Shown here piece by piece: positions 39,698 to 64,000 of a stretch of DNA of 64,000 nt (its first letter is position 1; the number at the start of each line of letters is the position of its first letter). Below the pieces are notes generated by a model that saw nothing but the letters and a program-made list of their open reading frames with translations, was not told the origin of the DNA and ran no database searches. The position numbers and the translations under genes were made by a program. Source of the stretch: Acidobacteriota bacterium (GTDB taxonomy: Bacteria; Acidobacteriota; UBA6911; RPQK01; DATIPO01); assembly GCA_035471785.1 (NCBI GenBank), contig DATIPQ010000083.1:10569-74568 (forward strand), in the 5' to 3' direction.

Positions 39698-39727
39698 AGA
39701 AGCAGCCCTCCAGCCCGAGGCATCGGA

Positions 39728-39766
39728 GAGGATGGAGGGCGGCATTGGTCATCGCCCTCCATCCTC
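39728..39766 (-). promoter_or_regulatory. Perfect 14-bp inverted repeat (stem-loop) between the small ORF and the loading NRPS
   Basis: GAGGATGGAGGGCG (39728-39741) and CGCCCTCCATCCTC (39753-39766), separated by an 11-nt loop. GC-rich, with no following U-tract on the minus-strand transcript. Confidence 0.6.
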
Positions 39767-48669: not shown

Positions 48670-49197
48670 TCAGTCTCGGTCCGGCTCGAGCTTGTAGATC
48701 CATTCGTCGATTTCTTTGTCGCGGGCGTTGGCGAAGGCCTTTTCCTCTCCTGCCAGGGAAAAGCCTCCCTTTTCAAGGACCCGGACGGAAGCCCGGTTGT
48801 CTTTGGCGGTACGGGCATACAAGGGCCGCTTCGGGACCAAGTCCAGCAAGAGCTTCAAGGCGCGGGTGGCGAAGCCTTTACCCCAGTGCTCTTTACCCAG
48901 CCAGTAGGTCACCTCGGGAGTTCCCTCGCGTTCAAAGCAGGAGATCATTCCGATCACCTCGCCGTCCACGTCGATGGTTCTCTTGATCACCGAATCGTCG
49001 GCCAAGATCTTCTTCCAGCGTTTCATGAAGGCCTCCTCGTCATGTGGCGACTTGGGGACGAAGGCGGCCATATGTCTGGCGTCGGGATCGCGCTGCTGCA
49101 GGAAGAAGACGGGAAGATCGTCTTCGTCTATTTCGCGCAGTATGAGTTTTTTCTTCACCAGAAGCCTATGATGCCAGGTAAGACTGCAGCTCTCCAC
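48670..49197 (-). CDS. GNAT-family N-acetyltransferase (RimJ/RimL-like)
   Basis: LILREIDEDDLPVFF...YWLGKEHWGKGFATRALKLLLD...ARTAKDNRASVRVLEKGGF. The start overlaps the amidinotransferase 3' end by about 32 nt. Confidence 0.75.
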   Translation of the reverse strand: MESCSLTWHHRLLVKKKLILREIDEDDLPVFFLQQRDPDARHMAAFVPKSPHDEEAFMKRWKKILADDSVIKRTIDVDGEVIGMISCFEREGTPEVTYWLGKEHWGKGFATRALKLLLDLVPKRPLYARTAKDNRASVRVLEKGGFSLAGEEKAFANARDKEIDEWIYKLEPDRD

Positions 49198-50242
49198 GGC
49201 GGCGCACGTCCAGGGTGGCGCAGTGGAACGATCCGCCGAAGCTGTTGAAATCTCGGAAATTGCAGAGGACGGGCTTGAATCCCCAATCCGTCAGGGCCTT
49301 GATCATCGGTTCATCGCTGCGTTCAACAATCACCCGCTCCTGGTCGAGCATGAGGACGTTCATATTGATCCATCCGCTCGACATGTAAAGAGGATGAGTG
49401 CGGGGAAACACCGGCCGCGGAGCGCGCAAGACGTCCCATCCCTTGAAGATGGAGGGCACTTGCGGCACGCGCTCGGGGTTAATGAGCAGCTTGCCGGGAG
49501 ACAACGGCATCAGGGTGGCGTCGATGTGCATGGGGTGAGTGTCATTGAACTCGAAGACGTGAAGCCGGTACTTGCCGTCAAGGTGACGGCGAAGCCACTC
49601 GATGCCGAAATCGTTGGTGACGTTGCTTTTCTGCGCGATGATGTCGCATCCGCAGCGGATGAAGTCAGCCGCTTCGAAAGTCGGTTCGAATTCGTTGATG
49701 ACGTAGCGCGGCGGCTCGTCCTCTTGTGGCTCCTCCCAGCCCTCATCGTAGAGTTCGTCCCGCAGTTCGGGCTTGGGTGCGGCTGTCCATCCGGCCCCGC
49801 GGCAAAAATACTCCTTGAGAAGAGGCCTGAAGGCGGAGGTTCCATAGTAGCGCGAGCGCCAGGCCAGAGGACATTCCAGAATCTCGTTGCCCAGCACCAG
49901 CAACACGTCCCGGGGCATGGCGTCGTAGAGTCCCGTGCTGGTCCAGCCGGGGGCCCCATAGGTACGGTGAAGGGCCTGCGGCTCGGGGCGGCGCACATTG
50001 ACTCCTTCCGCGCGCAGAATGTGGACCAATTCTTCCAGATCCCTCTTGGCGGCAGCTACTCGCTCGGCCGGAAAGGGCCTGCCGGAGCGGGCGCGGAAAA
50101 GCGCGCGCTGATGGTGAGGAAGCGGCGCCCGGACAGAAACGTGCCAGGGCGGAAACCTGGCTCCGTCCACCACGCCGACAATGACCTCTTCAAGAAGATC
50201 CCACTCGTTGTGGCAGTTGACGGGACAACCGGGGCTAGCCAT
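49166..50242 (-). CDS. Amidinotransferase (glycine/inosamine amidinotransferase family)
   Basis: NEWDLLEEVIVG, DAMPRD, HPMHIDATL and the catalytic-Cys motif GGSFHCATLD. The start is set at MASPG (50242), 4 nt after the phzF-like stop. Confidence 0.85.
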   Translation of the reverse strand: MASPGCPVNCHNEWDLLEEVIVGVVDGARFPPWHVSVRAPLPHHQRALFRARSGRPFPAERVAAAKRDLEELVHILRAEGVNVRRPEPQALHRTYGAPGWTSTGLYDAMPRDVLLVLGNEILECPLAWRSRYYGTSAFRPLLKEYFCRGAGWTAAPKPELRDELYDEGWEEPQEDEPPRYVINEFEPTFEAADFIRCGCDIIAQKSNVTNDFGIEWLRRHLDGKYRLHVFEFNDTHPMHIDATLMPLSPGKLLINPERVPQVPSIFKGWDVLRAPRPVFPRTHPLYMSSGWINMNVLMLDQERVIVERSDEPMIKALTDWGFKPVLCNFRDFNSFGGSFHCATLDVRRRGELQSYLAS

Positions 50243-51050
50243 GGCGCCCTCCGCAGAGGGCCGCACCAACACTAACGGAAACCCGCTCGCGGATGCGGGC
50301 CTGCCCTGCGACCTTGACGCGTTGACCGGCGAGTTCGACCAGCAGCCGGCCTCCCCTCGGCGACAACTGAAGTGCGGCCAGCCGGCTCTTGTGCAGCCGT
50401 TCGCCCCAGTAGGGCCCCAGCTTGCAATGGGCTGAGACGCAAACCTGGTCTTCGTCGACCCCCAAGGCGGGAAAGAACGACCGCGAGACGAAGTCTGCAT
50501 CCTGGGCGCCGGCCCTGGCGGTGACGACGTGGCCGCGGCATTCGATCTGGGCCAGTGCAGCGAAGTCCGGCCGAAGGGATGCCACCGCCTCCTCGTTGTG
50601 CAATTCGATCACGATGTCGTCGATCGACCGGGCGCATTGGACCATCTCGACGCCCAGGGCCTCTCTCAACCCCTGGGGAGGAGGACAGGCAGCCACCTCA
50701 AGCCGAGGCAGGTCGAGCGAGATGAAGCCGTCTCTGAGCCGGGCGTAGAGGGGACCGCTGCAGGTGCGGAAGCATAATTTGGAAGAGCGTCTCACCCCCG
50801 CCACCTCGTACAAGTAGCAGGCGCTTGCGATAGTGGCGTGGCCGCACAGGTTCAGCTCTTTGCGGGGGGTGAACCAACGAATGCGATAGTTGCCGCCGTC
50901 CCCGACCAGGAAGGCCGTAGTGGGCAGGCCCAGGCCCAAGGCAATCGATTGCATCCGCCGGGTGGCAGGAAAACTCTCGGCCGCGACCACTGCCGCGTCA
51001 TTACCCGCGAAACGTTGGTCGGCGAAGGTTTCAGCTATCCAGGCTTGCAT
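50235..51050 (-). CDS. PhzF-family (DapF-fold) isomerase/epimerase-like protein
   Basis: FAGNDAAVV, RIRWFTPRKELNLCGHATIAS. The canonical S-E-T-x-F catalytic motif reads P-T-T-A-F here. The start at MQAWI (51050) overlaps the upstream gene by 20 nt. Confidence 0.8.
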   Translation of the reverse strand: MQAWIAETFADQRFAGNDAAVVAAESFPATRRMQSIALGLGLPTTAFLVGDGGNYRIRWFTPRKELNLCGHATIASACYLYEVAGVRRSSKLCFRTCSGPLYARLRDGFISLDLPRLEVAACPPPQGLREALGVEMVQCARSIDDIVIELHNEEAVASLRPDFAALAQIECRGHVVTARAGAQDADFVSRSFFPALGVDEDQVCVSAHCKLGPYWGERLHKSRLAALQLSPRGGRLLVELAGQRVKVAGQARIRERVSVSVGAALCGGRHG

Positions 51051-52200
51051 GAAGAATCGCTTCCGCGCGAGCCCGCCCCGGCTGGTGGGCATCCGCTTGG
51101 CTCATTCCCAGGAACATCCGGTCGATAGCCTGGCCCAATCCCCAGACTTCGGAATAGGGCGGCCCCCCGTTCAGACCGTTGTCGATGTCACGCTGTCTGC
51201 CATAAGCCGCAATCATCCAGTCGGGAGTGGCCGGATAACGATGATGGAAATCGTGGTTGGGCAGGTCGCCGACCACCACCAGAAGCCGCGAGGGCAGATG
51301 ATAAAACAACATGGAGGCGCTCCAGGCCAGCCAGGAAGCCAGGCCCCTCGGCTTCCACGGGGAGGCCGAGGGCACGGCGCGTCCGCAGAACCGTCCCCAG
51401 GTCGCGGCCACGTGATAGTAGCGGGTGCCATGCCTGGGATCGCGCTGGGTCAGCCAGGCATGCTCCCCCAGCTTGTCGAGCAGGGCGCTCAGTTGCGCCA
51501 GCAGGATGACCGGAATCAAGAAAGCCAGCAGCAAGACCGTCCCGCCGTGGGGAAGCCAGATCGGCAGCGAGAGCCAGAAGGCGGCCCAGGAAAGGAAGCC
51601 GACCCGCCTCCAGGTCCCCTTGACCAGATTGCACCACAGCCGGTCGACGAATCCGCGTAGGTAGAAGGCGGGAGAAAAGAACACCAGAAGAGCCTGCAGC
51701 CAAAGCCGCCGCCTGGTCATGCCGGGCCGGAATCCGAGACCCAGCAGAACCTGCACCGGAGGATCCTCGTGGGTAGCGAAGACGGCTTCCCGATGATGGG
51801 AGTGAAAGTGCTCGACGCGAAAGGTGTCGGCATCCTGATAGAAGGTGAGCACCGTGACCATCTCGCCCACAAGGTTGTCGCGTTTTCCGTTTCCTGAAAA
51901 CCGCTTGTGAATGCACTGGTGAGCGATGACCAGTATCATGCTGCGGGCTGCCGACAGAGTTAGAATCCAACCTGCCAGCAGGGCCAGGTACCAAAACTGA
52001 AAGCGGAGCGAAACCGCCACTACCGAGAGCGACAGTCCTGCAAAGTAGATCGCTAATATGAGGACCAGGTAGCTGAACCAGGTATGACGGATCAGCGGCT
52101 GCTGGCGGGGCAACGCCTTGCCGGTGAACCAAGTCCAGAAATGCTGCGTCCAAGCCGGGAAGCGCAGGAACGACTCCCGCACATCGATTGCGTCAGACAT
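51031..52200 (-). CDS. Membrane fatty-acid-desaturase-family di-iron protein (paralog 3)
   Basis: His boxes HQCIH, HSHH and HDFHH, with multiple TM helices. The start is set at MSDAIDV (52200) with GGAGG upstream. Confidence 0.75.
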   Translation of the reverse strand: MSDAIDVRESFLRFPAWTQHFWTWFTGKALPRQQPLIRHTWFSYLVLILAIYFAGLSLSVVAVSLRFQFWYLALLAGWILTLSAARSMILVIAHQCIHKRFSGNGKRDNLVGEMVTVLTFYQDADTFRVEHFHSHHREAVFATHEDPPVQVLLGLGFRPGMTRRRLWLQALLVFFSPAFYLRGFVDRLWCNLVKGTWRRVGFLSWAAFWLSLPIWLPHGGTVLLLAFLIPVILLAQLSALLDKLGEHAWLTQRDPRHGTRYYHVAATWGRFCGRAVPSASPWKPRGLASWLAWSASMLFYHLPSRLLVVVGDLPNHDFHHRYPATPDWMIAAYGRQRDIDNGLNGGPPYSEVWGLGQAIDRMFLGMSQADAHQPGRARAEAILHASLDS

Positions 52201-52213
52201 TCTCAGCCTCCGC

Positions 52214-52921
52214 TTAGGCAGGAATCTTGTGGCGCCCATGAGAAGACGCGGAAATCTCCTTGCCGAGACGGTTGAAAAATCCCTCCCACAACCGCCACAT
52301 CTCTTCTGCGCTCTCCAGGACCAGACCCTCCTCGGCCGCGCTGAAGTCGTGCATCATCGTGTGGTTGGCTTCCTCGACGTGATCAGGTTCCTGCTCGACA
52401 TGAATCTCCACCCATTCCAGGTCGGTGACCCCGGTCGCGCCCGCGACCGCCTTGCCGATGGCCGAGACCATCAAAAGATCCGTCACTTCGGTGGCGAAGA
52501 TGGACCCGAGGGCTGAACAGCGGTCGCGAGAACCCCGTCGATAGCCCTCCACCAGCGCCGCCGTCTCCCGAAAGGGAGCTTGTCCGGTGATTTGCCGGCG
52601 GCTGAATCCGGCCCGCTCCATGGTGTGAATGTAGACCACTTCGTGAGCCCGGCCGACATTTCCTCCGCCCGCCTCTTGAGCGAGTATCCGCGAGATGGCG
52701 CTCTTCGATTCGATATCGGGAAGCACCGCGATGCAGCGAGCCAGGAAGGTGGGGAAGTAATGCAGCGGATGCCACCACTGCCCCACGATCACAGCGGCCT
52801 TGTCGACCGCCAGCGGCGCCTCGGCCACGCGCCGGAAGAAGTCGTGGCCGACGAAACGGCGGCGCACGGAGTTCTCCTCCAAACGGTTCGTCAAGGTGTG
52901 AGAGTTGTGCTTGCTTTCCAT
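52214..52921 (-). CDS. Heme-oxygenase-like di-iron enzyme family protein (iron-containing redox enzyme, HDO/CADD/PqqC-like)
   Basis: QWWHPLHYFPTFLARCI, ILAQEAGGG...HEVVY, FATEVTD and EWVEIHVEQEPDHVEEA supply the expected Glu/His ligand pattern of this helical family. Confidence 0.7.
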   Translation of the reverse strand: MESKHNSHTLTNRLEENSVRRRFVGHDFFRRVAEAPLAVDKAAVIVGQWWHPLHYFPTFLARCIAVLPDIESKSAISRILAQEAGGGNVGRAHEVVYIHTMERAGFSRRQITGQAPFRETAALVEGYRRGSRDRCSALGSIFATEVTDLLMVSAIGKAVAGATGVTDLEWVEIHVEQEPDHVEEANHTMMHDFSAAEEGLVLESAEEMWRLWEGFFNRLGKEISASSHGRHKIPA

Positions 52922-52949: not shown

Positions 52950-53804
52950 TCAAGCGGCCCGTTCAATCAAGAAGTAGCGGTGCAACTCGCAGGCCTTTTG
53001 GTAGAGATCCCGGTTTCCGCTGGCCTTCGCGATCTTGAGAAACGTCTTCCAAATGAAGTTGTCGCCGCCATCTCGGCGATAGTGCCTTTTGATGAGGACG
53101 GCGAATATGTCCCGGTAGTTGTCCAAGTCAATGACGCCTGAAAGCGTCAGCAGGGAATCATGCTCCCGGCTGCTCATGGGACGGCGGGTGCAAATGCTGT
53201 CGGTCGGAATGCCTGCCTCTTTCTCCGGCATGAAGCGCAGCAGCTTGCGGCCGTCATCCACATCCGAGAAGTCGAGCATGAGATGAACCCGCTTGTCCTG
53301 GGAAAAGGAAGCCGCGCTGTGAGGGCAGGAAGCGTCGAAGAACCAGGCCTCGCCGGCCCGCATCCGGTAAACCGTGTTCTCCTCCATGAAGAAACAATGC
53401 TCGTTGGTCAGAAGCGGCAGGTGAAGGCGATGGGCGTTGCGCTTCTTTTCGGGAATTTCTCCCAATTCCAGCAGATCCCTGTGGGGAATGATCACGCTGT
53501 TGGATATGACCGCCAGCCGCGCGAAGTTGAGGAAATCGAGATTGAAGTACCGCTCAACAAGCCCGGAAAGATAAGGCAGTTGTCGACCGTATTCGGTAAT
53601 CGCCGGGCGCTGCGTGAAGTCATAGTTGGTGACCAGGCCGTCGCCCCGGTCGCCTCCGGCCGCCCAGAGCATGCAACTTTTCCAAGGACCGCCGCACAGG
53701 TATTCGCTGTAAGCGTCGGAGAAAGCGAGGCGGGCGCTTTTTTCAATCTCCGCATCGGCCTTGGTCCAATCGATTTCCAACCGTCCGACTCTTTGTGTAC
53801 GCAT
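52950..53804 (-). CDS. Fe(II)/2-oxoglutarate oxygenase, proline 3-/cis-4-hydroxylase-like (aspartyl beta-hydroxylase-type cupin)
   Basis: GRLEID, IIPHRDLLEL (H108-x-D110, about 53475-53483), YRMRAGEAWFFDASCPHSA (H162) and the C-terminal LTLSGVIDLDNYRDIFAVLIKRHY. All are collinear with my recollection of Streptomyces proline 3-hydroxylase. Confidence 0.65.
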   Translation of the reverse strand: MRTQRVGRLEIDWTKADAEIEKSARLAFSDAYSEYLCGGPWKSCMLWAAGGDRGDGLVTNYDFTQRPAITEYGRQLPYLSGLVERYFNLDFLNFARLAVISNSVIIPHRDLLELGEIPEKKRNAHRLHLPLLTNEHCFFMEENTVYRMRAGEAWFFDASCPHSAASFSQDKRVHLMLDFSDVDDGRKLLRFMPEKEAGIPTDSICTRRPMSSREHDSLLTLSGVIDLDNYRDIFAVLIKRHYRRDGGDNFIWKTFLKIAKASGNRDLYQKACELHRYFLIERAA

Positions 53805-53816: not shown

Positions 53817-54707
53817 TCAGGCAACGGAGGTAAAAGGCTCGCCCCAGACATTTGCGCTCTTGACCCGGTTGTGACCGTAGACATCCTTGCCGCCCACCAG
53901 GACGCACCCGTGGCGGGAGAGATCAAAGTGATGCCCGAACTCGTCGAACTCGGTCATGCCCTCATACACTTTCACGTGGGTTGGAATGACCCGGATCGAG
54001 AAGCCCATCCTCTGCTTGCGGCTGGTATTGGGATTCGAGCCGTGAACGCAGCGCGCGGTAAAGATCACGAACTCTCCCGGTTTCATCTCGGCGTAGGCGA
54101 TGTCTTTCTCGTCGGGATTCCAAGTCTTGTCGAGCTTGGCGTCGTCGTAGCTGTAGCCGAAAAACGTATTCTCGATCCGAGTGTCGTCCCAGTTCAGCCT
54201 GCGCTTCTCGTCGTAGTACCAGGTGCGGTGGCTGCCGGGCAGGAATCTCAGACATCCGTTCTCTTTGGTGGCCTCGGTGAAGGCCACCCAGGCGGTCAGC
54301 TCCATGGGGACGCCGTTGGAATGGGTAGTCGCCTTCAGCATCCCCTCGGTGGCTTCGCCAATGGCGTAGGTTTCGACCTGGTGCCAACCAGTCCCGGCAT
54401 CTCCCGGATTCTTGGGAAAGAACTCTGTGCGCCAGCAGAGCACGTCGGGGCCGATCAAGGACTGAAAGCGCCGCACGATGGCCGGCTCGGAGATGATCCT
54501 GCTCAAGCCCGGGATGTCGAGGTGGCGGTCGTAGTTAAGCGGGTTGTCGAAAGCGGCCCGCTTGGTGTTCTCAGGGTTGAGAAGCGCCGCCCGCTGCTCC
54601 TTCCACCATACCTTCATGGCCTCGGGCTCCCACAGTTTGAAGGGGCCGATGAAGCCCTGTTGGTTGAAGGTCTCCCTTTCCGATTCGAAGTCGATCATCT
54701 TTTTCAT
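53817..54707 (-). CDS. SyrB2-like carrier-protein-dependent Fe(II)/2OG enzyme (PhyH superfamily), halogenase-type metal motif
   Basis: FNQQGFIGPF, NYDRHLD, LIGPDVLCWRTEFFPKNPGDAGTGWHQVETYA, ENGCLRFLPGSH, FFGYSY and VHGSNPN...RMGF. These are near-collinear with the SyrB2 sequence as I recall it. Confidence 0.8.
   Translation of the reverse strand: MKKMIDFESERETFNQQGFIGPFKLWEPEAMKVWWKEQRAALLNPENTKRAAFDNPLNYDRHLDIPGLSRIISEPAIVRRFQSLIGPDVLCWRTEFFPKNPGDAGTGWHQVETYAIGEATEGMLKATTHSNGVPMELTAWVAFTEATKENGCLRFLPGSHRTWYYDEKRRLNWDDTRIENTFFGYSYDDAKLDKTWNPDEKDIAYAEMKPGEFVIFTARCVHGSNPNTSRKQRMGFSIRVIPTHVKVYEGMTEFDEFGHHFDLSRHGCVLVGGKDVYGHNRVKSANVWGEPFTSVA
54375..54383 (-). other. Metal-binding motif H109-Q110-V111 (no carboxylate ligand)
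   Basis: Codons CAC CAG GTC were verified on the minus strand. The equivalent motif in SyrB2 is H-Q-A, and in PhyH-type hydroxylases it is H-x-D. Confidence 0.7.
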
Positions 54708-54896
54708 CCTCGTCAGTGGAATGCAGGCCGAGTCCGCCTCGAAGGCGGCAGCCCGGCCTCTGCTCTCCAGGGCAAGGCCACTGGCTCGGCTATCTGCATG
54801 AAAGGCCAGACGACGATAGCCATCCGCTACGTCCCGCCTCGTTGCGCTCCCGTATCTCCCGTCGTTCTCGATCTCTCCTTCTGCCCTGTCTCCTCG

Positions 54897-57530
54897 TCAA
54901 CCTGAGCGGATGGAGCTGAGGGCTTCGTCCAGGGCGCGCGCCGTCGAGGCCGCCAGAGGCTGGCGAAGGATGCTGCAGTGGTCGCCGGGCACAGCGTGAA
55001 TGCGCATGGGGCCCAGGACGATCTTGTGCAGCTCGACGGCCAGCGAGTCCTGGACCGCCTGCGATGAACCCGTAGGCTGAAACAGGTCGACGGCGCCGTC
55101 AAAGGGGAGGGGACGATACTTCATGGCGGCCCCCATGCTGTCGCGGGCGACACGAAGGTTCTTCTTCAGATGGGCCGCCTGCAGACCTTGCGGGATATTA
55201 TTACCCAGCAGCCCGTTCCAAGCGGGATCGGCGAAAAACCGGGACAGGCCGTTTTTTCCATCCCCCGCGTCAACAGTCCCGGTCTCGATCTTTTGCAGCG
55301 CCTCGGTGAGCAGATCCAGGTGAGGGCTCTCTGCGATCCTGAGTCCGGTGATGGGATCGCGCAAAGGGTTGGCGTCGATGAGGCCTAGAAAATCGACCCG
55401 CTCGCCGCAGCCGGTCAGTTGGCGGGCCAGTTCGAAGGCCAGCACCCCGCCGAAGGACCATCCGGCCAGCCGGTAGGGTCCTCGGGGTTGAACGGCGCGG
55501 AGTTGCGTGAAGTGGACTTTGGCCATCTCCTCAATCGAACCCATGCAGGCTGGATCGCCTTGCTCCCCGCAATGCCAGCGCAGCCCCAGGATGCGAAAGG
55601 GAGATCTGATCGCATGGGCCAGTTCGCGATAGGCCAAGAGCTCGCCTCCCAGCGGATGGACGAACAAGAGAGGCCGTTTGGGCGGGCCGGGACGGATGGT
55701 GACGACTTCCGACCTCAGCTCCAAGCCCTCGCGCCGAAATTCACGGGTATCCAGTGCCCTTGCGAGCTCAGCAACGGTGCTGTTGTGGAGGAGAAAAGAC
55801 AGCTCGATCTCGCTGCCCACCAACTGACCGATTTCCGTCACGGCCCAGGCAGCCAGAAGGGAATCCCCGCCAACATCGAAGAAATCGTCGTCCAGAGCGA
55901 GTTGGTCATGACCCAGAATCCGCTCCCAGATTCGCCTGATGGCCTCGGCCAGAGAGTCGCCCGTGCTGACGTCGCCGTCCATCGGGGGCAGTTCGAGTTC
56001 CTGCAAGGCCAGACGGTCGATCTTGCCGCTGCTGGTCTGAGGCAACGCCTCAAGTTGGACCAGACGCGCCGGGATCATGTAGCTTGGCAGCAGGGAGCGC
56101 AAATGCCCCAGCACTTCGACGTCGCTCACCCGCTCGCCGTGGACGACAAGGAAAGCTACCAGGGCGGAAACGTCCTCAGCCAACGGGCGGGCCAGCACCG
56201 CCGCTTCGCCTACCGCGGGATGGTCGGTGAGGGCCTTTTCAACCTCGGCAGGCTCGACGCGGAATCCATTGATCTTGACCTGGGCGTCCGAGCGTCCCAG
56301 AAAATGGAAAAGCCCTTTCGTGTCGACCCGCGCCAAGTCCCCCGTGCGGTACATGCGCGCGCCCTGCCCCTCGCTGAAGGGATCAGGCAGGAAGCGCCGC
56401 GCGGTTTCAGCCGGCGCCTCCAGATAGCCTCGTCCCACGCCCTCACCGCCCACGAACAGCTCACCGGTTTGACCGGGTTTCACCGGAACCAGATTGGGGT
56501 CCAGGTTGTAGAGCGCCACATCGTCCACCGGGCTGCCGATCGGCGGCAGCGGCGGCCAGGCGGAAGGTTTCCCAGCCAAGGTGTAGCTGGTCACCAGATG
56601 GGCTTCTGTGGGGCCGTAGTGATTGTCGAAGCGGCATTCCGGCAAAGCCTGAAAGAAGCGGGCAATGGGTTTGGTGATGATGAGGCGCTCGCCGGCGGTG
56701 ATGACGTGGCGCAAAGAATCCGGCACAAGGCCAAGCCGTTGCGAGGCCTTGGCCAACTGTTGCAGAGCGACGTAAGGCAGGAACAGTCTTTGAATTGACT
56801 TTTCCTTCAATTGGTAGAGCAGCCGCTCAGGGTCCCGCCGCACTTCATCGGGGAGCAGAAACAAAGCGCCACCCGTGCACAAGGCGGAAAAAACCTCCTG
56901 AAAAGTCACGTCAAAACCCAAGGAGGTGAACTGCAGGGTGGCGAGTCCTGGAGGTCCTTGGGCGATCTGCCACCGAATCAGACGGGTCAGGCCACGGTGG
57001 CTCATGCCCACTCCCTTGGGCGGACCAGTGGAACCGGAAGTGTAGAGGACGTAGGCCAGATGCCGGGGACGCAGGAACGGGCGGGGAAAGCGTGCATTCA
57101 GCAGCGGTGCGGCGTCCTCGCCGCTGCCGACGACAAGGGCGGGGAGATCCCAGCCCGAAGCATCCTCGTCCGCCACGATCGCGGCCGGATGCAAGTTCTC
57201 GAGCATGGCGGCGATGCGCTTCCTGGGCAGAGAGGGGTCGATGGGCGCATAAACTCCGCCGGCTCCAAGAACCGCCAGCATGGCGACGAACAGTTGGGGC
57301 GAGCGGCTCATGAGAACTGCCACGGGCCTGTCGGGCCCCACACCGAGCCCCAGCAACTGCCCCCTGAGACGGCTTGAGCGTTGCATCAGCCTTCCATAAC
57401 TGATGGGGCGCCCGTTCTTATCGACGATGGCTGCCCGCTCGGGATGCACTTCCGATTGATGCCTGACCCATTCATGGACGAAGCCGGAGGCCTTTTTCTT
57501 CGAGGCTGGCCATTCATCTTGCAAAAGCAT
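54897..57530 (-). CDS. NRPS A-T-TE (completes a split module with the C domain ending the upstream protein)
   Basis: ISYGRL, LAYVLYTSGSTGPPKG, NHYGPTE, FFDVGGDSL (T) and GWSFGG (TE). The ATG at 57530 is preferred over the TTG at 57548 and overlaps the upstream stop by 17 nt. Confidence 0.9.
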   Translation of the reverse strand: MLLQDEWPASKKKASGFVHEWVRHQSEVHPERAAIVDKNGRPISYGRLMQRSSRLRGQLLGLGVGPDRPVAVLMSRSPQLFVAMLAVLGAGGVYAPIDPSLPRKRIAAMLENLHPAAIVADEDASGWDLPALVVGSGEDAAPLLNARFPRPFLRPRHLAYVLYTSGSTGPPKGVGMSHRGLTRLIRWQIAQGPPGLATLQFTSLGFDVTFQEVFSALCTGGALFLLPDEVRRDPERLLYQLKEKSIQRLFLPYVALQQLAKASQRLGLVPDSLRHVITAGERLIITKPIARFFQALPECRFDNHYGPTEAHLVTSYTLAGKPSAWPPLPPIGSPVDDVALYNLDPNLVPVKPGQTGELFVGGEGVGRGYLEAPAETARRFLPDPFSEGQGARMYRTGDLARVDTKGLFHFLGRSDAQVKINGFRVEPAEVEKALTDHPAVGEAAVLARPLAEDVSALVAFLVVHGERVSDVEVLGHLRSLLPSYMIPARLVQLEALPQTSSGKIDRLALQELELPPMDGDVSTGDSLAEAIRRIWERILGHDQLALDDDFFDVGGDSLLAAWAVTEIGQLVGSEIELSFLLHNSTVAELARALDTREFRREGLELRSEVVTIRPGPPKRPLLFVHPLGGELLAYRELAHAIRSPFRILGLRWHCGEQGDPACMGSIEEMAKVHFTQLRAVQPRGPYRLAGWSFGGVLAFELARQLTGCGERVDFLGLIDANPLRDPITGLRIAESPHLDLLTEALQKIETGTVDAGDGKNGLSRFFADPAWNGLLGNNIPQGLQAAHLKKNLRVARDSMGAAMKYRPLPFDGAVDLFQPTGSSQAVQDSLAVELHKIVLGPMRIHAVPGDHCSILRQPLAASTARALDEALSSIRSG
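54900..55694 (-). other. Thioesterase domain of the A-T-TE protein
   Basis: The last ~265 aa are an alpha/beta-hydrolase with LLFVHPLGGE and the nucleophile elbow AGWSFGGVLAFE (Ser, not Cys). Confidence 0.7.
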
Positions 57531-60500
57531 GTTCGACGATCTCCTCAAGTAATGCGTTGTACCTTCCCAACAAAGCCCCGGCCGCCGTGCCCGAGCCGAG
57601 CCTGCCCTTAAGCGTCAGTTGCCCGCTCAAGCCGCTGTCGGACATTGCCAGGTAGAGAATGAGGTCGTAGTCGTGCACCGCCGACTTGAAAAAGCCGGAC
57701 TGGGCCTCAACCGGCGCCGGCTCGGTGGTCAGCCCGGCGAAGGCGTTCATTTCGGCAGGCTGTTCATCGAAAAGGAAGAAGGCCTGAGCCAGTGCGCTCC
57801 GTTCTATTCCGGACTCCGTACTCAGGCGTCGCATCAGTTCCTCGAAGGGGACATCGTGATGTCCGCAGGCGTGCAGGAACGACTCGCGCACCCGGCGCAG
57901 CGCTCCCAAGGGCGATTGCCGGGGAGAAACCCTGGTGCGCAGAACCAGCGTATCCGTAAGCGGACCCACCATGTTTTCGAGCGGGCGCTGATGACGCGAC
58001 GCCAGATTGGTGGCCACGCGGACGTCGCAACTCCCGCCTTGCCGCTGAAGAAGCCTTTTCAAGGCCGAGAGCAAGACCACGAAGAGGGACGTCTGCTCGC
58101 GACGGGCCACTTTTGCCAGTTTCATAGAGAGAGCAGGTGCGATCTTGAGGGGATAGCTTTCCACCCCCTCCTCGGAGCCGTCCCGCGCCGGACGCCAAGA
58201 AAAGCGCATGCGCTCCAGTGGCGGCTCCAGGATGCTTTTCCATTGCGCCACCTGGCCGTCGAAAAGGCCTTGCTCCAGGCACTCCCTCTCCCAGAAGGCG
58301 TAATCGCCAAAAGTGAGGGAGGGCCGAGTAAGGGGCGAATCCAGTCCTCTGGCAATGGCCTCATAGTCGGCGGCGAATTCCCGCCCTAACACGCCCAGGC
58401 TCCATTCATCGGCCACGATGTGGTGGGCCACCAAAGTCAGGACATGGTGATCTTGCTGCAAACGGGCGATCATGAAACGGGCACACGGACCTCTCGCCAG
58501 GTCAAAGGGCCTGGCAGCCTCTGATTGAGCCGCCTCGAGCAAAAGGCGTTTCTCCTGCTCGTCGCGAATGTGTGCGAAATCGAAAAGGGCGGCCTCAACA
58601 CAGGTGCCGTCGTCCCACTGCTGCCAGAGCCTTCCGTCCCGCAGATCGAACTTGGCGCCGAGAATCGGGTGCCGCCGCGACAGTGCTTCCAGAGCCTGCT
58701 TGCCCGCGGCCAAGTCGAAGGGGCCTCTGAGAGCGAAGGAGCTGGCGATGTTGAGAAAGTGCGGGTTCTCAGCCGTCCGATCCACTGACCAGAAATGGCG
58801 CTGCACCAGCGTCGTCGGCGAGGCGGCGGCGGAACGGGCCCGCAAAGGCGGCAACCTCTTGGCAAGGCCCCGCGAGCGGTCAACTTCCGCTGCCAGCTCC
58901 GAAACGGTCGGATGCTTGAGGATGGCCTGCAGAGGCAAGGCAACGCCTAGGTCCTCGTTGATCCGGGCCATAACGCGGATGCCGATCAATGAATGTCCGC
59001 CCAAGTCGAAGAAATGGTCGTGAACGCTGAGCCGCTCCAGGCTGAGGAGTTGCTTCCAGATTTCGCACAGCCGCCGCTCGGTTTCAGTTCGGGGTGACCG
59101 GTCGGCGGCGGCTATGCCTCTTGAGTCAGTTGTCTGGAGGCCAGAGACGTCTACCTTGCCCTGGGCCGTCAACGGAGTGTCGGCGATACGTCCGATGGTG
59201 AGGAGAGGCTTCGATTGGGGCAGCAGCACGGCCAGGAGCCGCCTGACGGATTTGAGGTCAAGACCTTCGTAGCTAGCCGTGACAAAGGCCCTCAGACCTG
59301 CACCGGAGTCCTTATCCCTTACGATCCATGCGTCGTCGATGCCTTGGCAATGCAGCAACGCGGCTCTGACCTGGGCGCCATCGATGAGCATCCCATCGTC
59401 CTCCAGCACCTCGTCGTCGCGTCCCCAGAATTGCAGGTCGCCGTTCTCCAAACAGCGCACTCGGTCACCGGTCCGGCAGAGACGCTTGTCTGGAATGTCT
59501 CCATGAGGCGGAGGGGTGAATGTTTCAGCGGTTTGTCGAGGCCGATGAAGATAACCGCGGGCCAAGCCGGCCCCGGCCAAGTAGAGTTCGCCCACCACTC
59601 CGGCCGGAACGGGAAGGCCGCGCTGATCCAAGACGTAGCAGCGGGTGTTTGAAATGGGCCGGCCGATGGCCGGCGCTTGCCCGGGCCGCCGCAACTTGCA
59701 GGCGGCAAAGGCCCCGGCCTCGACAAGTCCGTAGAGGTCGTAGACCCGCAAGGAGCCGGCCGCCTGCTGACAGACCTGATCGGCGAGAGCGGTTTCGAGG
59801 CGTTCGCCGTAGAGATTGACCACCCGCAAGGACTCGGGCAAGGCCTCAGGGTGCTTCCGCAACAGAACCCGCACGCTCCCCGGTGTCGTGTTCGCCATCG
59901 TGACGGAATCCCTTGCCGGCAGGAAAGGAAGGGAGAGGGCGTTCTCGGCCAGCACCAGACTGTGCCCGGAGCAGAGCGGAACGAAGATTTCGAAGAGTGA
60001 GGGGCCGCGGCAAAGCGAGCAGGAGGCGAGCACTGCGGCAAGATCCTCGGCCGGGTAAAAGCCGTGGGCCCAGTCGAGGAGCGAAGTGACGCTTCGATGC
60101 TCGATCATGACCATCTTCGGAATGCCGAGATAATCTCGCCCGGAGAGCATGATGCAGGCTAGACTCTCGGGGGCTGCCGGCAATCCGCGATCAAGCGGCG
60201 GGGCATCCCCCTCGTCCGGCAGCAGCACCTCTCCCTCCCATCTTGGGAGAGATTCGGCCACCTCGCCTTCAGCGACCAGGACCTGGGTGCAGCACTGGTC
60301 GAGCAGAGCTTGGATTTTCAGCAGCGGATAGTGAGGCTCGATGCAGATGAAAGCGGCGCCCGCCTTAAGGACGCCGAGAAGGCTGGCGATTAGCCGCGGC
60401 GTGCGCCGCATGCACAGGGCCACCACCTGTCCCGGCCTCACGGACCGGTCCAACAGCCGGCCTGCCAGTCTGTTGGCTTCATCGTTGAGTCTGCTGTACG

Positions 60501-62136
60501 AGATGACCTCCTGCCCAAAGCGGACAGCCACAGCCTCTGGCCGTTCCCGAACGCGGGCCTCGAACAACTCGTGAAGACAGCTCGTCTCGATGTCTTGGGT
60601 GCTTTCAGCGTCCCTCCATCGCCACAGCATCAGGTCTCTTTCCGGCGGAGTCAGGAGAGGGGCGGTTGTGATGCATCCGTGAGGATTACGGGCCATTTCC
60701 GTCAACACCAGCTCAAAGTGGCCGGCCATGCGTCGGACCGCCCTGCGATCAAAAAGGTGATGAGGATATTCGAAGATGCCGTTCAGTCCGGCTTCGCTTT
60801 CCTGCAGCGAAAGCAGGAGGTCGAACTTGGCGGTTTGAGTTTCGACTTCTCTCAAGTCGGCCCGCAGTCCGCGGAACTCATATCCCTGCGAGGAGGCTTC
60901 GGTGAAGGAAAGCATGACTTGAAAGAGGGGTCCGCTACGCGGCGGGTTTTGCCGGGCGAGTTCTTCAGCCAGAGTCTCGATGGGCAGGTCCTGATGCTCG
61001 AAGGCTTCCAGCGCCGCGGCACGCTCGCCCGCCAGCACGTCCTGCCAGGTATCTGAAGGCCTGAGCGGATTGCGCAGCACGATTGTATTGCCGAAGTAGC
61101 CCATCAGGGCTTCGGTTCCGGGCAAAGTCCGGCGGATGACGGGCGTGCCGATTAACACGTCGGTCAGTTCAGTGTATCGAAGGAGCAGAATGCGGAAAGC
61201 GCTGACCAGGAGCATGAACCGCGTCGCCTGCAGGCTCCGGCCGACCTCGGCCAGGCCGGCGCCGAGTTGCTTTGAGATGTGAAAAGACACCCGTTCGCCA
61301 CGAACTTCTTCCGGGGGAGCGCAAAAAGCAGCGAAAGGCAGTCTCACGGGGGTCCATTGTCCGCTGAGCTTTTGCCTCCAATAGGCCAGGAGCTTCTCCT
61401 TGCGAGCCCCCTTCAAGTGGCCTTGCTCCCACACCGCGAAGTCGGCGTAACTCAGTGCCGGTTCGGGCAGGGAAGCTTCTGGTGCTTGGTAGAATGCGGC
61501 CAATTCGCGCAGAAATATGGAAACCGAAGAGACGTCCGCCACGATGTGGTGCAGCTTGACGAAAAGCCAATGAAGCTGATCGTTCTGCCGAAACAGACGT
61601 GCTTGAAATGGGGCGCGCTGAGCCAGGTTGAAGGGCTTTGAGGCATCCTCGCTCATCAGCCTCCAGGCAGCGGCTTCATCTGCGACCTCCTCAGCAGGCA
61701 GATTGCAAGGGGCCCTATCGACGACCTGCATCGGACCGTCCGGCGTCTCCACGAAATAGGTCTGCAGGACTTCTTGCCGGCGTCGGACCCGGCTCAAGGC
61801 GCCCACCATCGAGGACACTCTCAGAGGACCCTCCAGCTTGAGCGTGAATGCAATGTTGTAAGCCGGACTGAGGGGCGCCAGTTTCCACTGCGCCCACATC
61901 CGCTGCTGTCCTGAGGAAAGCGGGAGCGTATGGCTACGGTCGGCCCTGGGAACGGCTTGCGGCAGTGAGCGGAGGGCCGATCCCAGACGTTCGAGAAGCT
62001 GCTCGCGATGCTTTCGAAGCCGCCTCCTGCAGCTTTCATCGAGGGCGCCTGGCGGAGCTTGGTACCTAAGCCTGTCCCCCTCGGCCCAGATTCGGACTTG
62101 CCGTTGGCGCAACTCAGCCAGAAATTGCTCAATCAT
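57514..62136 (-). CDS. NRPS dock-C-A(degenerate)-T-C
   Basis: N-terminal TubC-type dock, HHIVADVSS (C), degenerate A domain, FFDLGGHSL (T) and HHIVADEWS (terminal C). The start is set at MIEQF (62136), 24 nt after the mbtH-like stop. Confidence 0.9.
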   Translation of the reverse strand: MIEQFLAELRQRQVRIWAEGDRLRYQAPPGALDESCRRRLRKHREQLLERLGSALRSLPQAVPRADRSHTLPLSSGQQRMWAQWKLAPLSPAYNIAFTLKLEGPLRVSSMVGALSRVRRRQEVLQTYFVETPDGPMQVVDRAPCNLPAEEVADEAAAWRLMSEDASKPFNLAQRAPFQARLFRQNDQLHWLFVKLHHIVADVSSVSIFLRELAAFYQAPEASLPEPALSYADFAVWEQGHLKGARKEKLLAYWRQKLSGQWTPVRLPFAAFCAPPEEVRGERVSFHISKQLGAGLAEVGRSLQATRFMLLVSAFRILLLRYTELTDVLIGTPVIRRTLPGTEALMGYFGNTIVLRNPLRPSDTWQDVLAGERAAALEAFEHQDLPIETLAEELARQNPPRSGPLFQVMLSFTEASSQGYEFRGLRADLREVETQTAKFDLLLSLQESEAGLNGIFEYPHHLFDRRAVRRMAGHFELVLTEMARNPHGCITTAPLLTPPERDLMLWRWRDAESTQDIETSCLHELFEARVRERPEAVAVRFGQEVISYSRLNDEANRLAGRLLDRSVRPGQVVALCMRRTPRLIASLLGVLKAGAAFICIEPHYPLLKIQALLDQCCTQVLVAEGEVAESLPRWEGEVLLPDEGDAPPLDRGLPAAPESLACIMLSGRDYLGIPKMVMIEHRSVTSLLDWAHGFYPAEDLAAVLASCSLCRGPSLFEIFVPLCSGHSLVLAENALSLPFLPARDSVTMANTTPGSVRVLLRKHPEALPESLRVVNLYGERLETALADQVCQQAAGSLRVYDLYGLVEAGAFAACKLRRPGQAPAIGRPISNTRCYVLDQRGLPVPAGVVGELYLAGAGLARGYLHRPRQTAETFTPPPHGDIPDKRLCRTGDRVRCLENGDLQFWGRDDEVLEDDGMLIDGAQVRAALLHCQGIDDAWIVRDKDSGAGLRAFVTASYEGLDLKSVRRLLAVLLPQSKPLLTIGRIADTPLTAQGKVDVSGLQTTDSRGIAAADRSPRTETERRLCEIWKQLLSLERLSVHDHFFDLGGHSLIGIRVMARINEDLGVALPLQAILKHPTVSELAAEVDRSRGLAKRLPPLRARSAAASPTTLVQRHFWSVDRTAENPHFLNIASSFALRGPFDLAAGKQALEALSRRHPILGAKFDLRDGRLWQQWDDGTCVEAALFDFAHIRDEQEKRLLLEAAQSEAARPFDLARGPCARFMIARLQQDHHVLTLVAHHIVADEWSLGVLGREFAADYEAIARGLDSPLTRPSLTFGDYAFWERECLEQGLFDGQVAQWKSILEPPLERMRFSWRPARDGSEEGVESYPLKIAPALSMKLAKVARREQTSLFVVLLSALKRLLQRQGGSCDVRVATNLASRHQRPLENMVGPLTDTLVLRTRVSPRQSPLGALRRVRESFLHACGHHDVPFEELMRRLSTESGIERSALAQAFFLFDEQPAEMNAFAGLTTEPAPVEAQSGFFKSAVHDYDLILYLAMSDSGLSGQLTLKGRLGSGTAAGALLGRYNALLEEIVEHAFAR
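59077..60579 (-). other. Adenylation-like domain with degenerate core motifs (approximate bounds)
   Basis: A3 reads LACIMLSGRDYLGIPKMV (60109-60162) instead of LAYxxYTSGSTGxPKG. The A4 FDxS motif is absent (CRGPSLFEIF). A5 reads DLYGLVE. A8 reads GRDDEVLEDDGMLIDG. A6 (GELYLAGAGLARGY) and A7-like CRTGD are retained. Confidence 0.7.
61972..62136 (-). other. TubC-type N-terminal docking domain
   Basis: MIEQFLAELRQRQVRIWAEGDRLRYQAPPGALDESCRRRLRKHREQLLERL. Confidence 0.6.
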
Positions 62137-62162
62137 CTGAGGCTTCCTGTCCTGGAGAGGAA

Positions 62163-62384
62163 TCACCCGGCAGATTCGGCGGCCTCCATGCTCTTGCGCA
62201 GGCTGGCGGGGCGCATGTCGGTCCAAAGTTCGCCGATGCGCTCCAGGCAGTCCTCTTTGGGAGCTGCCGATCCCACGGTTTCCCAGCCGTCCGGGACAGG
62301 CATGTCGGAACGCCAAATGGAGTACTGTTCTTCGTGGTTGCGAACCACGTAATAGAGGTCATCGCTACTGTTGTTGTCGGTCAT
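62163..62384 (-). CDS. MbtH-like protein
   Basis: YYVVRNHEEQYSIWRSDMPVPDGWETVG...CLERIGELWTDMRP matches the MbtH signature (N.E.Q.S.W......P.GW). The start at MTDNN (62384) overlaps the upstream gene by 20 nt. Confidence 0.85.
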   Translation of the reverse strand: MTDNNSSDDLYYVVRNHEEQYSIWRSDMPVPDGWETVGSAAPKEDCLERIGELWTDMRPASLRKSMEAAESAG

Positions 62385-64000
62385 AGATCCGTTCTCCCTG
62401 GTGGTTTTGGAAGACTTCGCCGTCGCTTCGCTCTTCATCCTCCCTCAAGGACTGGCCGAGCACCCGCTCGATAATGTCGCGTTCGCCGAGTTCGGTCCGC
62501 CGCGCCATGGCAAGGGCGGCGCGGCGCCTGTCGGCCTCGTCGCGGTCTTGCGACAGCTTGAAACGGCCGAGGATTTCGTCAATCTCGATTTCAAAGCCCA
62601 CGATGTACCCGATCAGAGTCTCGATTCGGGGATCGTCGGGGCTGAGCCGGAAAGCGCCTATCTCCTGATCGGAATGCTCGGCGATGGCGCAGAGTCCCTT
62701 GACAAGCTCTTCGCGGTCGGTGATCAGACGCGCGAGGCCTTCGACGTGCACGGTGAGCGAGTTCCAAGTGGGAAGTTGGTCGGTGGCATATACGTGGGGC
62801 GAGATGTAGCTGTTGGGCCCGTGAAACAAGGCCGTGACGCACCGCCCTTCAAGAAGCTCGACGTGCGGATTGGCGCGGTCCATATGCCCGAAGAGGACTC
62901 CCTTGGCTCCGCGGCCGCGGTCGAGGATGAGCGGGACCTGCGTTATCACGGGCTCATCCTCCCTGCGCGCCGAGATCAGCGTAGCGAACCTGAACCGCTC
63001 CATCACCGCATAGAGTTTGTCGCTCGAATGCTCCAGGTGGCGCTCAGGCGGATACGCGCCCGATAAGGCCTTCGCCGAACGCTCCTCGGCGGCTGGCGTC
63101 CGCCGACAGATGTCCGCGAAGATCTCTCGCGCGCGGAACGGCAACAGCGACATCAGCGTCTCGCCGATGCCAAAGGAGGACTCACCCAGCCCCTGGGCGT
63201 AGAGTCCGCAGCCCATCTCAGGGTCGGTCTGCAGCCGGTGACGGCGTGAAAGAAGGAGTCTGCCTTGGGAGTCCTTCTTGCACAGGGGCAGCACCTCGGC
63301 AAAGATTTCAGGATCGAGGGAGCGATCATATCCGGTGCTCAGCACAACGCCGTCGAAGCTCATCGAACTTGGCGAGGCGCCATATTTTGCGTCTACCGTC
63401 AGGCGCACTTTTTCCTCGCCCGCCTGAATCGCCTGCACACGCGAAAAGGGATGAATGTAGAGACGTTGGCGGCCTTTAACCTCGTCCAGATAACTGCTGC
63501 GGTAGAGGTTTTCAAGCAAGCTCAGCTCGATGACGCCGTAGTTGGTGGTCCGCAATTCCCGTAGAATCGCCGCTCGTTTCTCGGGGCTATAGTTACGAAA
63601 GGCGTCCGCATGCCTGGAGGAGAAGTGCTCGTTGACGAAAGGGCTGTCGTCCGTGGGGCGCGGAGCCGAGCCGGAAATCAGCATGTGTATGCTCGCCCGC
63701 GGGTAGCGTTGATGCAGGTATTCGAGGATCTCGCCGGCACTCTGGCCCCCGCCCACGACTGCGAAATCGTAGCTCCTCCGATGGTCCTCAAACTGTCTGG
63801 GGAAGTGGGGAAGAAATCTGCTCGAATGCACTACCCGGTCAGAGCAGCAAGCCGTCCCTGAGGGGATTCGGGGACGGCCTCCGGGAGCATAGACGATGTT
63901 CTGTGCCAAGTGCTGAGCGGTGTCTCCCGTGGCTGTCTTCGTGACCTCCACGCAAAAGCACCAGGGCACGGTCTCCCCCTTTCGGGTCAGGAGCGAGACC
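62365..64000 (-). CDS. Fusion protein: L-ornithine/L-lysine N-hydroxylase (IucD/PvdA/KtzI family) + PaiB/KtzT-like domain; 5' end outside window
   Basis: The visible N-part has HSSRFL, FAVVGGGQSAGEI, GVVLSTGY and LYAQG of the flavin N-hydroxylase family. The reading frame stays open to the window edge, so the FAD-binding N-terminus is missing. Confidence 0.75.
   Translation of the reverse strand, partial: VSLLTRKGETVPWCFCVEVTKTATGDTAQHLAQNIVYAPGGRPRIPSGTACCSDRVVHSSRFLPHFPRQFEDHRRSYDFAVVGGGQSAGEILEYLHQRYPRASIHMLISGSAPRPTDDSPFVNEHFSSRHADAFRNYSPEKRAAILRELRTTNYGVIELSLLENLYRSSYLDEVKGRQRLYIHPFSRVQAIQAGEEKVRLTVDAKYGASPSSMSFDGVVLSTGYDRSLDPEIFAEVLPLCKKDSQGRLLLSRRHRLQTDPEMGCGLYAQGLGESSFGIGETLMSLLPFRAREIFADICRRTPAAEERSAKALSGAYPPERHLEHSSDKLYAVMERFRFATLISARREDEPVITQVPLILDRGRGAKGVLFGHMDRANPHVELLEGRCVTALFHGPNSYISPHVYATDQLPTWNSLTVHVEGLARLITDREELVKGLCAIAEHSDQEIGAFRLSPDDPRIETLIGYIVGFEIEIDEILGRFKLSQDRDEADRRRAALAMARRTELGERDIIERVLGQSLREDEERSDGEVFQNHQGERIYDRQQQ
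62455..63057 (-). other. PaiB-family (FMN_bind_2-like split-barrel) C-terminal domain
   Basis: FRFATLISA...ITQVPLILD...LFGHMDRANPH...ALFHGPNSYISPHVY...LPTWNSLTVHVEG...GFEIEIDEILGRFKLSQDR follows the PaiB pattern. The heme-dependent piperazate synthase KtzT/PzbB belongs to this fold family. Confidence 0.7.

Follow-up and report, generated by a model that had tools for sequence, protein, structure and literature searches.

The subject of this report is a two-gene unit in a 64,000-nucleotide stretch of DNA from an Acidobacteriota bacterium (GCA_035471785.1, contig DATIPQ010000083.1, positions 10,569-74,568 of the forward strand), which we here call the window. Its interval 53817-57530 holds two open reading frames (ORFs), both on the minus strand. 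The first one, 54897-57548 (883 aa), encodes a protein with adenylation, thiolation and thioesterase domains (A-T-TE); the second, 53817-54707 (296 aa), encodes an Fe(II)/2-oxoglutarate (Fe/2OG) enzyme of the SyrB2/CytC3 clade, in which an H-x-V motif (HxV) takes the place of the expected iron- and halide-site sequence. A gap of 189 nt separates the ORF ends 54897 and 54707. An earlier sequence-only reading of the interval had described this architecture, this gap and the residues of the motif, and Pfam, the ORF ends and a check of the codons bear it out. Coordinates are window positions unless preceded by an L-number, which denotes a homologous locus fetched for comparison. The features of the unit are the following.

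54897-57548, minus strand: A-T-TE tridomain protein, 883 aa, with Pfam AMP-binding, AMP-binding_C, PP-binding and Thioesterase; likely start ATG 57530
about 56022-57464, minus strand: A domain (Pfam)
about 55752-55946, minus strand: T domain (Pfam)
about 54900-55676, minus strand: TE domain (Pfam)
55860-55862, minus strand: Ser563, pantetheine site of the T domain, kept in 40/40 homologues
55455-55457, minus strand: TE Ser698, kept in 40/40 homologues
54978-54980, minus strand: TE His857, kept in 40/40 homologues
53817-54707, minus strand: SyrB2/CytC3-clade Fe/2OG enzyme, 296 aa (293 aa from ATG 54698), with H109-Q110-V111; PhyH 6.9e-30
54375-54383, minus strand: codons of H109-Q110-V111, with H109, the proximal iron ligand, at 54381-54383 (CAC) and V111 at 54375-54377 (GTC)
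54387-54389, minus strand: G107, two residues before H109 on the same strand face
54372-54374, minus strand: E112, the His+3 residue (codon checked)
54054-54056, minus strand: A218, on the distal-His strand, where SyrB2 has Ser231
54042-54044, minus strand: H222, distal iron ligand, equivalent to SyrB2 His235
53991-53993, minus strand: R239, equivalent to SyrB2 Arg254

The 296-aa protein has the PhyH fold and reaches 311 bits with the TIGR01762 model ('chlorinating enzyme'), whose cut-off is 226. As had been expected from its collinearity with SyrB2-type enzymes, its alignments with CytC3 (2.7e-65) and SyrB2 (1.2e-64), the sole strong matches among all solved structures, run practically from one end to the other. 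Its AlphaFold2 model has a mean predicted local distance difference test score (pLDDT) of 78 and a predicted template modelling score of 0.84. The top Foldseek match of the model is SyrB2 (2fct, TM 0.86), and sequence identity over the structural alignment to SyrB2 and CytC3 is 34-38%.

In the alignment, WHQVETY stands over WHQAATF of CytC3, WHQADTF of SyrB2 and WHQD of the hydroxylase ThoJ. V111 falls into the column of SyrB2 Ala118 and of the ThoJ Asp, i.e., the carboxylate ligand position of hydroxylases. Hydroxylase relatives of the PhyH family have H-Q-D or H-Q-E in this column and complete their facial triad with it; here the column reads H-Q-V, and the carboxylate is genuinely missing, as the sequence-only reading had it. 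Nor does the protein have the small residue that makes space for the halide and is the hallmark of Fe/2OG halogenases. This hallmark is given as HXA/G in a review of 2021 (PMC8407142), in a paper of 2025 (PMC12171316) and in a 2026 preprint on 22 curated non-haem-iron halogenases (PMC12871659). A literature search revealed no paper that pairs 'HxV' with 'halogenase' and none specific to the gene cassette described below; within the papers searched, valine is indeed not a described variant.

In SyrB2, Arg254 binds the C5 carboxylate of 2-oxoglutarate. Its equivalent R239 is retained, as is the distal His, H222, within VHGSNPN; R233 corresponds to SyrB2 Arg248 and T138 to Thr143. H109, H222, R233, R239 and T138 are invariant across the clade that shares the cassette. 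Judged by sequence, the protein has all a SyrB2-type catalyst needs, except that the residue at the anion site is not small. In fold, cofactors and carrier logic it agrees with a known family. What is new is the failure of one defining feature, HXA/G.

The valine had been presented as a feature of a single gene. This view has to be given up. A search of 5.8 billion proteins yielded 509 relatives at E <= 1e-20, and the motif was read in the best 120 of them (65-77% identical): 119 have WHQVE, one has WHQLE. Many of these 120 are automatically annotated as 'chlorinating enzyme'. A scan with one genome per species gave 399 relatives. The nearest copies of the cassette, with 75-76% identity, are found in metagenome-assembled genomes (MAGs) of Pyrinomonadaceae and Eremiobacterota and on a Rhizobium plasmid. 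Counted over 78 WHQ[VL]E genes of the window and the fetched loci, the Val codons are GTC (52), GTG (19), GTT (6) and GTA (1). Since all four Val codons are used, though Ala is a single transition away, V111 is held by selection.

A wider survey relied on representatives at 50% identity and comprised 45 clusters at E <= 1e-30, of which 42 were informative. Following H-x, Ala stands in 23 clusters, Val in 11, Ser, Thr and Asp in two each, and Gly and Glu in one each; in three clusters the position is unaligned. In a neighbour-joining tree, which is a distance tree only and carries no bootstrap values, the HxV lineages group together and make up the majority of a clade sister to SyrB2/CytC3, in which one HxA subclade is nested. 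As far as sequences tell, Val is an invariant signature of a large, so far uncharacterised clade within a conserved cassette and no peculiarity of one gene.

A more distant HxV clade (44-49% identical; WHQVE(T/A)F ... FLAKC(I/V)H) comprises many Streptomyces, Actinomadura and Dactylosporangium and is represented by loci L051-L083. After the HxV gene, for example L053 9941-10873 or L068 9941-10870, comes a gene resembling ketoacyl synthase III. In these loci the HxV genes often lie near an AMP-binding gene and a Na/H-exchanger-type transporter, a separate and equally uncharacterised context for H-x-V. In the still wider SyrB2-like PhyH family (representatives P0121-P0270), the residue after H-x can be A, V, T, S, N, G, D, E, F or Y. 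Whole groups of proteins of about 400 aa have HQTG or HQNS, and many HxA proteins have Glu at the position of SyrB2 Ser231. The split into HxD hydroxylases and HxA/G halogenases covers, by these motif readings, only part of the diversity of the family.

The valine does not change alone. Residues invariant in the cassette clade were compared with SyrB2, CytC3 and intermediate groups. At position 107, all HxA groups examined have Asp, and all HxV groups have Gly or Glu. Position 218 is Ser together with Ala111 and mostly Ala together with Val111. Position 220 (SyrB2 Leu233), which is Cys in the cassette clade, changes alongside residue 111. The distal-His strand reads FWS(T/N)xMH in SyrB2 and CytC3, FTSRCMH in the nearest HxA relatives and FTARC[IV]H in the HxV cassette clade. 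Smaller and less polar neighbours around a bulkier Val can be read, from these substitutions, as a cavity that is repacked but preserved, or as a site made hydrophobic.

The presumed partner of the enzyme is the A-T-TE protein. From a multiple alignment, its specificity code is D213 V214 Q217 L255 I283 A285 H310 L318 V319 K509, i.e., DVQLIAHLVK. It is identical at nine of ten positions to the proline code DVQLIAHVVK, as a manual extraction had already suggested; an ambiguity between L and F that had been left at the fourth position is settled as L. The pocket segment aligns without gaps to the proline-activating domains of GrsB1 (8p5o, 2.4e-29) and TycB1 (9bfd_B, 3.1e-28), the next match being 4e-17. 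The corresponding pieces (window/reference) are FDVTFQE/FDVCYQE, RLFLP/VLSFP, HVITAGE/HIITAGE and NHYGPTEAHLV/NHYGPSETHVV. The pocket differs from that of GrsB1 and TycB1, DVQLIAHVV, by L for V at position 330; moreover, the window A domain stands by itself, joined to a T and a TE, and is not part of an elongation module. CytC1 is also among its PDB matches. In homologous A-T-TE proteins the code is conserved as DVQ[LIV][IV]AHLVK.

In all 37 loci with enough sequence (37/37), such a proline-type A-T-TE gene lies directly upstream of the HxV gene, and stop and start codons usually overlap. The 189-nt gap of the window (54708-54896) is unusual in this respect; homologous loci with inspected gene calls mostly overlap by 4-14 nt, and a Paraburkholderia locus (L086) has a gap of 43 nt. 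Neither an ORF nor an MbtH motif was found in the window gap. An MbtH motif was not found elsewhere within the window either; several homologous loci do carry MbtH beside the A-T-TE gene.

The two genes head a conserved cassette. About 40 genomes share one arrangement: the A-T-TE gene comes first, then those for the HxV enzyme, a proline-hydroxylase-like enzyme, a BesC-like haem-oxygenase-like diiron enzyme, a membrane desaturase-like enzyme and a PhzF-like isomerase. The hosts span Actinomycetota, Pseudomonadota, Acidobacteriota and Eremiobacterota. Among them are Paraburkholderia, Pseudoalteromonas, Streptomyces, Nocardia, Amycolatopsis, Streptosporangium, Pseudonocardia and Micromonospora, the mentioned Rhizobium plasmid, and Pyrinomonadaceae, Chthonomonadaceae, Eremiobacterota and Caulobacterales MAGs. 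Paraburkholderia and Pseudoalteromonas have a minimal trio of A-T-TE, HxV and hydroxylase-like genes. The cassette always lies within or next to genes of non-ribosomal peptide synthetases (NRPSs), so its product presumably is a building block. In the window, the other cassette genes and their neighbours are the following.

52950-53804, minus strand: imino-acid hydroxylase-like Fe/2OG enzyme (proline 3/4-hydroxylase family, free substrate); Asp_Arg_Hydrox and Pro_3_hydrox_C
52214-52921, minus strand: haem-oxygenase-like diiron enzyme, distantly BesC-like; Haem_oxygenas_2 3e-21; syntenic in about 35 loci
51031-52239, minus strand: membrane fatty-acid-desaturase-like diiron enzyme; FA_desaturase 6.9e-10, weak GntB match; syntenic, 56-68% identity
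50235-51092, minus strand: PhzF-family isomerase-like protein; PhzC-PhzF 1.3e-50, 1s7j 2.6e-53; syntenic
49166-50242, minus strand (ORF as listed to 50500; likely start M87 at 50242): amidinotransferase of the SxtG/HsvA/AGAT family; SxtG 9.6e-128, HsvA 6.4e-122, AGAT 7e-113
57514-62316, minus strand: NRPS module directly upstream of the A-T-TE gene, TubC_N docking domain, condensation (C), A, T and C domains (Pfam); its A domain looks degenerate
62365-63969, minus strand: ornithine N-hydroxylase fused to a piperazate-synthase-like domain (KtzI-KtzT type); Lys_Orn_oxgnase 4.6e-45 and FMN_bind_2 7.6e-34

The hydroxylase-like gene follows the HxV gene in most loci. Its window product matches L-proline cis-4-hydroxylase (4p7w, 1.6e-41) and proline 3-hydroxylase (1e5r, 2.7e-34). 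For the diiron protein, the only PDB match is BesC (7twa), and a weak one (1.3e-4). The proximity of a halogenase-type Fe/2OG gene and a BesC-like one recalls the pair BesD/BesC, a lysine halogenase with a haem-oxygenase-like diiron enzyme after it. BesD, however, is an HxG enzyme that works on a free amino acid, and no pyridoxal-phosphate enzyme is present here.

From homology, ligand residues, adenylation code and synteny we infer a reaction sequence, which includes the identity of the substrate, the carrier partner, the use of halide and all downstream steps. The A-T-TE protein would adenylate an imino acid, by its code most likely L-proline, with piperazate supplied by KtzI-KtzT as second choice, and load it onto its own pantetheinylated T domain at Ser563. 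The HxV enzyme would dock on the aminoacyl-S-T. It would hold Fe(II) by H109 and H222 only, and 2-oxoglutarate by R239 and T138. A ferryl species would then abstract a ring hydrogen. At the third facial position, which has no protein carboxylate, chloride would bind and be passed on to the substrate radical. For this, the halide pocket would have to be repacked, not closed, with Val111 balanced by S231->A218, L233->C220 and D->G107 (SyrB2 -> here). The TE would release the modified imino acid. The proline-hydroxylase-like, BesC-like diiron, desaturase-like and PhzF-like enzymes might process it further, before the NRPS uses the product.

The best single reading is tentative: the enzyme may be a carrier-protein-dependent two-His Fe/2OG chlorinase with a repacked halide pocket, a view taken from sequence comparison to which we would give somewhat less than an even chance. 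It would act on prolyl-S-T and, less likely, on the piperazyl thioester. Chloride transfer is narrowly favoured because of the clade membership, the lack of a substitute carboxylate, the interleaving of HxA and HxV enzymes and the compensating shrinkage of neighbouring residues. Parallels between pathways support it by analogy, namely the Pro-type pocket, the adjoining proline-hydroxylase homologue and the BesC-like enzyme that echoes BesD/BesC.

The closest relatives fit this picture in most respects. With SyrB2 of syringomycin biosynthesis and CytC3 (2fct, 3gja), the window enzyme shares full-length homology, fold, both His, both Arg, the Thr143 equivalent, the absence of a carboxylate ligand and the adjacent A-T partner. 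It differs by Val for Ala at the halide site, by D->G at His-2, by FTARC(V/I)H instead of FWS(T/N)xMH, and by its place in a sister clade. CytC1-CytC4 load, halogenate and release an amino acid, so that a free chlorinated one results. The same four functions recur here, with A, T and TE fused and the halogenase-like gene following. Unlike in the CytC system, the pocket is of the proline and not of the aminobutyrate type, four more enzymes belong to the operon, and the whole is embedded in NRPS clusters.

Several points weigh against chlorination. All characterised Fe/2OG halogenases are reported with Ala or Gly at the position of V111 (PMC8407142, PMC12171316, PMC12871659). Val adds two methyl groups beside the halide site, and the hydroxyl of SyrB2 Ser231 is lost. 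In none of more than 100 cassette-clade sequences is Val replaced by Ala, despite the distance of a single transition; Val therefore is not simply equivalent to Ala. At residues 101-120 the pLDDT of the model is only 52-58, i.e., the model is unreliable exactly at the motif, and pocket sterics were therefore not read from it. We know of no chlorinated product from any host of the cassette. Three further points, a two-His enzyme that hydroxylates, piperazate as a possible substrate in the window and a possible other carrier, are taken up below.

The most serious rival is a halide-independent oxygenase. Val111 would close the anion site, water or hydroxide would occupy the two-His iron, and the carrier-bound imino acid would be hydroxylated or desaturated, e.g., to a hydroxy- or dehydro-prolyl-S-T; a functional shift would have occurred within a halogenase clade. 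We consider this possible, with a chance of roughly one in three. AspH, the human beta-hydroxylase of aspartate/asparagine, is a natural 2OG oxygenase that binds its iron by two His and without a carboxylate, and it hydroxylates (PMC10947486). Because two-His sites can evidently do so, hydroxylation or desaturation without halide is almost as likely as chlorination. In view of this precedent, the missing carboxylate does not by itself mark a halogenase, a point on which the sequence-only reading has to be amended. Of course, AspH belongs to an unrelated subfamily, acts on a protein and has Gly at the vacant position; it illustrates an alternative outcome of a two-His site.

The strict selection of Val over Ala, the polar second-sphere residues lost together with the change from Ala to Val (D->G107, S->A218) and the departure from the HXA/G hallmark would all suit an oxygenase. 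So would the remainder of the cassette, which consists of oxygenases and an isomerase and offers no obvious user of a chloride leaving group. Yet the neighbours of residue 111 shrink, which fits a preserved rather than a filled cavity, and HxA and HxV enzymes interleave within one clade. The characterised members of the SyrB2 branch are all halogenases, and with a dedicated proline-hydroxylase-like gene next door, a second hydroxylase would be partly redundant.

Substrate and carrier are questions separate from that of the reaction, and the likelihoods stated for their alternatives do not add up with those of the reaction. L-proline is the probable substrate of the A-T-TE protein, with odds slightly better than even. 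L-piperazate (L-Piz) is unlikely, though to be taken seriously; the small remainder is left for another cyclic imino acid. The sequence-only reading had named 'Pro or piperazate'. The first half of this proposal is favoured by the code, the second fits it poorly, though a KtzI-KtzT fusion lies beside the window cassette.

If piperazate were the substrate, KtzI-KtzT would supply it, the A-T-TE protein would load it, and the HxV enzyme would modify piperazyl-S-T in the manner of KthP. Piperazate-pathway genes are indeed in the cluster, as the fused Lys_Orn_oxgnase and FMN_bind_2 domains at 62365-63969 demonstrate. The N-terminus of this fusion is cut by the end of the window; full-length homologues have 660-776 aa and adjoin the cassette in L001, L002, L005, L041 and L086. 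Together with the window, these six of about 42 cassette loci, which come from unrelated phyla, have the fusion within 10 kb. Neither in the KtzI-KtzT loci nor elsewhere in the window was an A domain with a canonical piperazate code found, so that the A-T-TE protein is the only obvious taker of piperazate.

The published piperazate codes, however, are DVFSVASY and DVFTVAAY (PMC10888640) and differ from DVQLIAHL, the pocket being nine-tenths identical to those of GrsB1 and TycB1, which activate proline. The A-T-TE code is also unchanged between the loci with KtzI-KtzT and the roughly 35 loci without ktzI or ktzT within 10 kb. Furthermore, the amidinotransferase, which is conserved in L001, L002, L005 and L034, tends to go with the KtzI-KtzT fusion, and its presence hints at a separate building block, an amidino or guanidino compound, in that subset of clusters. 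The ORF of the amidinotransferase (49166-50500) is without a Pfam or NCBIfam match.

KthP chlorinates a piperazyl-S-carrier protein in kutzneride biosynthesis and is a carrier-dependent Fe/2OG enzyme acting on a cyclic imino/hydrazino acid (PMC11705231, PMC8407142). It had been put forward as a precedent. It holds only as a functional analogy, and a piperazate synthase gene does lie nearby in the window; judging by the genome scan, in which none of the 42 cassette-clade loci comes from Kutzneria, KthP is no orthologue, and the A-T-TE code of the window is of the proline type. The demiguisin cluster (PMC11446937) was considered as another match on account of the modified Piz and Pro residues of its product. 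It was rejected, since its enzymes are different.

It is improbable, but conceivable, that the true carrier is not the A-T-TE protein, but the T domain after an A domain with the unusual code DVW[ILV][LFM]GC[CNS]VK, which in the window is part of a terminal C-A-T-TE (30675-34949). Of the 37 cassette loci, 24 (including L084 3966-6986) also have this code, more broadly DVW[ILVMF][LFM]GC[CNST]VK, which speaks for this candidate and against the A-T-TE protein as carrier. In actinomycetes it often belongs to a second, divergently transcribed A-T-TE. The more distant HxV enzymes, too, pair with adjoining A-T proteins that bear similar DVW.[IV]G...K codes. In about one third of the loci, however, no DVW..GC..K domain lies within 10 kb. 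The Pro-type A-T-TE gene, by contrast, invariably sits directly upstream and in most cases is translationally coupled; in the window the other candidate is 20 kb away. The DVW..GC..K domain may re-activate the product of the cassette or may be an alternative carrier partner.

Finally, a relocated carboxylate might complete the two-His-one-carboxylate triad and make the enzyme a plain hydroxylase. E112 does parallel D119 of SyrB2, as had been noted earlier, and both E112 and E136, the latter on the strand that carries T138, are invariant in the cassette clade, position 136 being Thr in SyrB2 and CytC3. The possibility is nevertheless a very slim one, since SyrB2 with its own Asp at +3 is titled in its solved entry with Fe(II), chloride and alpha-ketoglutarate, position +3 is taken by Q, R, A, S or T in other HxV lineages, the nested HxA subclade carries E136 as well so that this residue does not track with Val, and residues i and i+3 of a strand should face opposite sides. 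An acid at +3 is therefore no general rescue of the metal site, E112 being ruled out as a general explanation and E136 as a Val-linked ligand. Glu at position 218, which occurs in the wider family, was likewise considered as a relocated carboxylate; it is equally frequent with HxD and is uninformative on the metal site.

The surroundings of the cassette deserve some remarks. Two more desaturases are encoded in the window, along with transport functions and about eight NRPS modules, and the gene cluster probably continues past position 64000. The two desaturase genes are arranged in tandem (46550-47551 and 47548-48534, minus strand) together with an FGE-sulfatase/EgtB-like gene (45768-46679, minus strand), and are followed by an NMT1-type ATP-binding cassette uptake system and an alginate-export-like porin. 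The tandem desaturases are kept with the cassette in L001, L005 and L034.

The A domain of the module 57514-62316 has no equivalent of the FDxS Asp235. It has LYGLVEA for YGPTE and SGRDYLGIPK for the TSGSTGxPKG phosphate loop, and it shows an A4-A5 deletion. In the corresponding domain from Rhizobium (L001) the code is normal and Ala-like, DLFVNALTYK. By analogy with SyrC, which serves SyrE, the window module may be loaded in trans.

Further unusual codes are shared by cassette clusters of unrelated phyla: DAE[LS]FGD[IT][SI]K, DVW[HAV][QS]S[LM]EVK and DLF.NAL.YK (window 34694-39745 and 20986-30816; L005, L044, L086). Their recurrence across phyla indicates one horizontally spread family of NRPS products.

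What all this means depends on the reaction. Genome mining for radical halogenases uses HXA/G and would discard the HxV clade, while annotation by homology calls the same genes 'chlorinating enzyme'; for hundreds of genes, either the rule or the annotation must be mistaken. Should HxV enzymes halogenate, the sequence rule in general use would be too narrow, and Val with its pocket of Ala, Cys and Gly would be a new template for the engineering of anion selectivity. If they do not, a natural halogenase scaffold has been turned back into a two-His oxygenase, which bears on the control of halogen versus hydroxyl rebound. More broadly, and again as a tentative proposal with a chance of about one in three, H-x-V might mark a widespread class of carrier-dependent two-His Fe/2OG enzymes with a reaction unlike that of the known halogenases, be it halide-independent desaturation or hydroxylation or the use of another anion. 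It would be the first step of a six-gene pathway to an undescribed proline- or piperazate-derived building block for NRPS products, from Actinomycetota to Acidobacteriota. With either outcome, the cassette points to an unknown modified imino acid in the NRPS clusters of many phyla.

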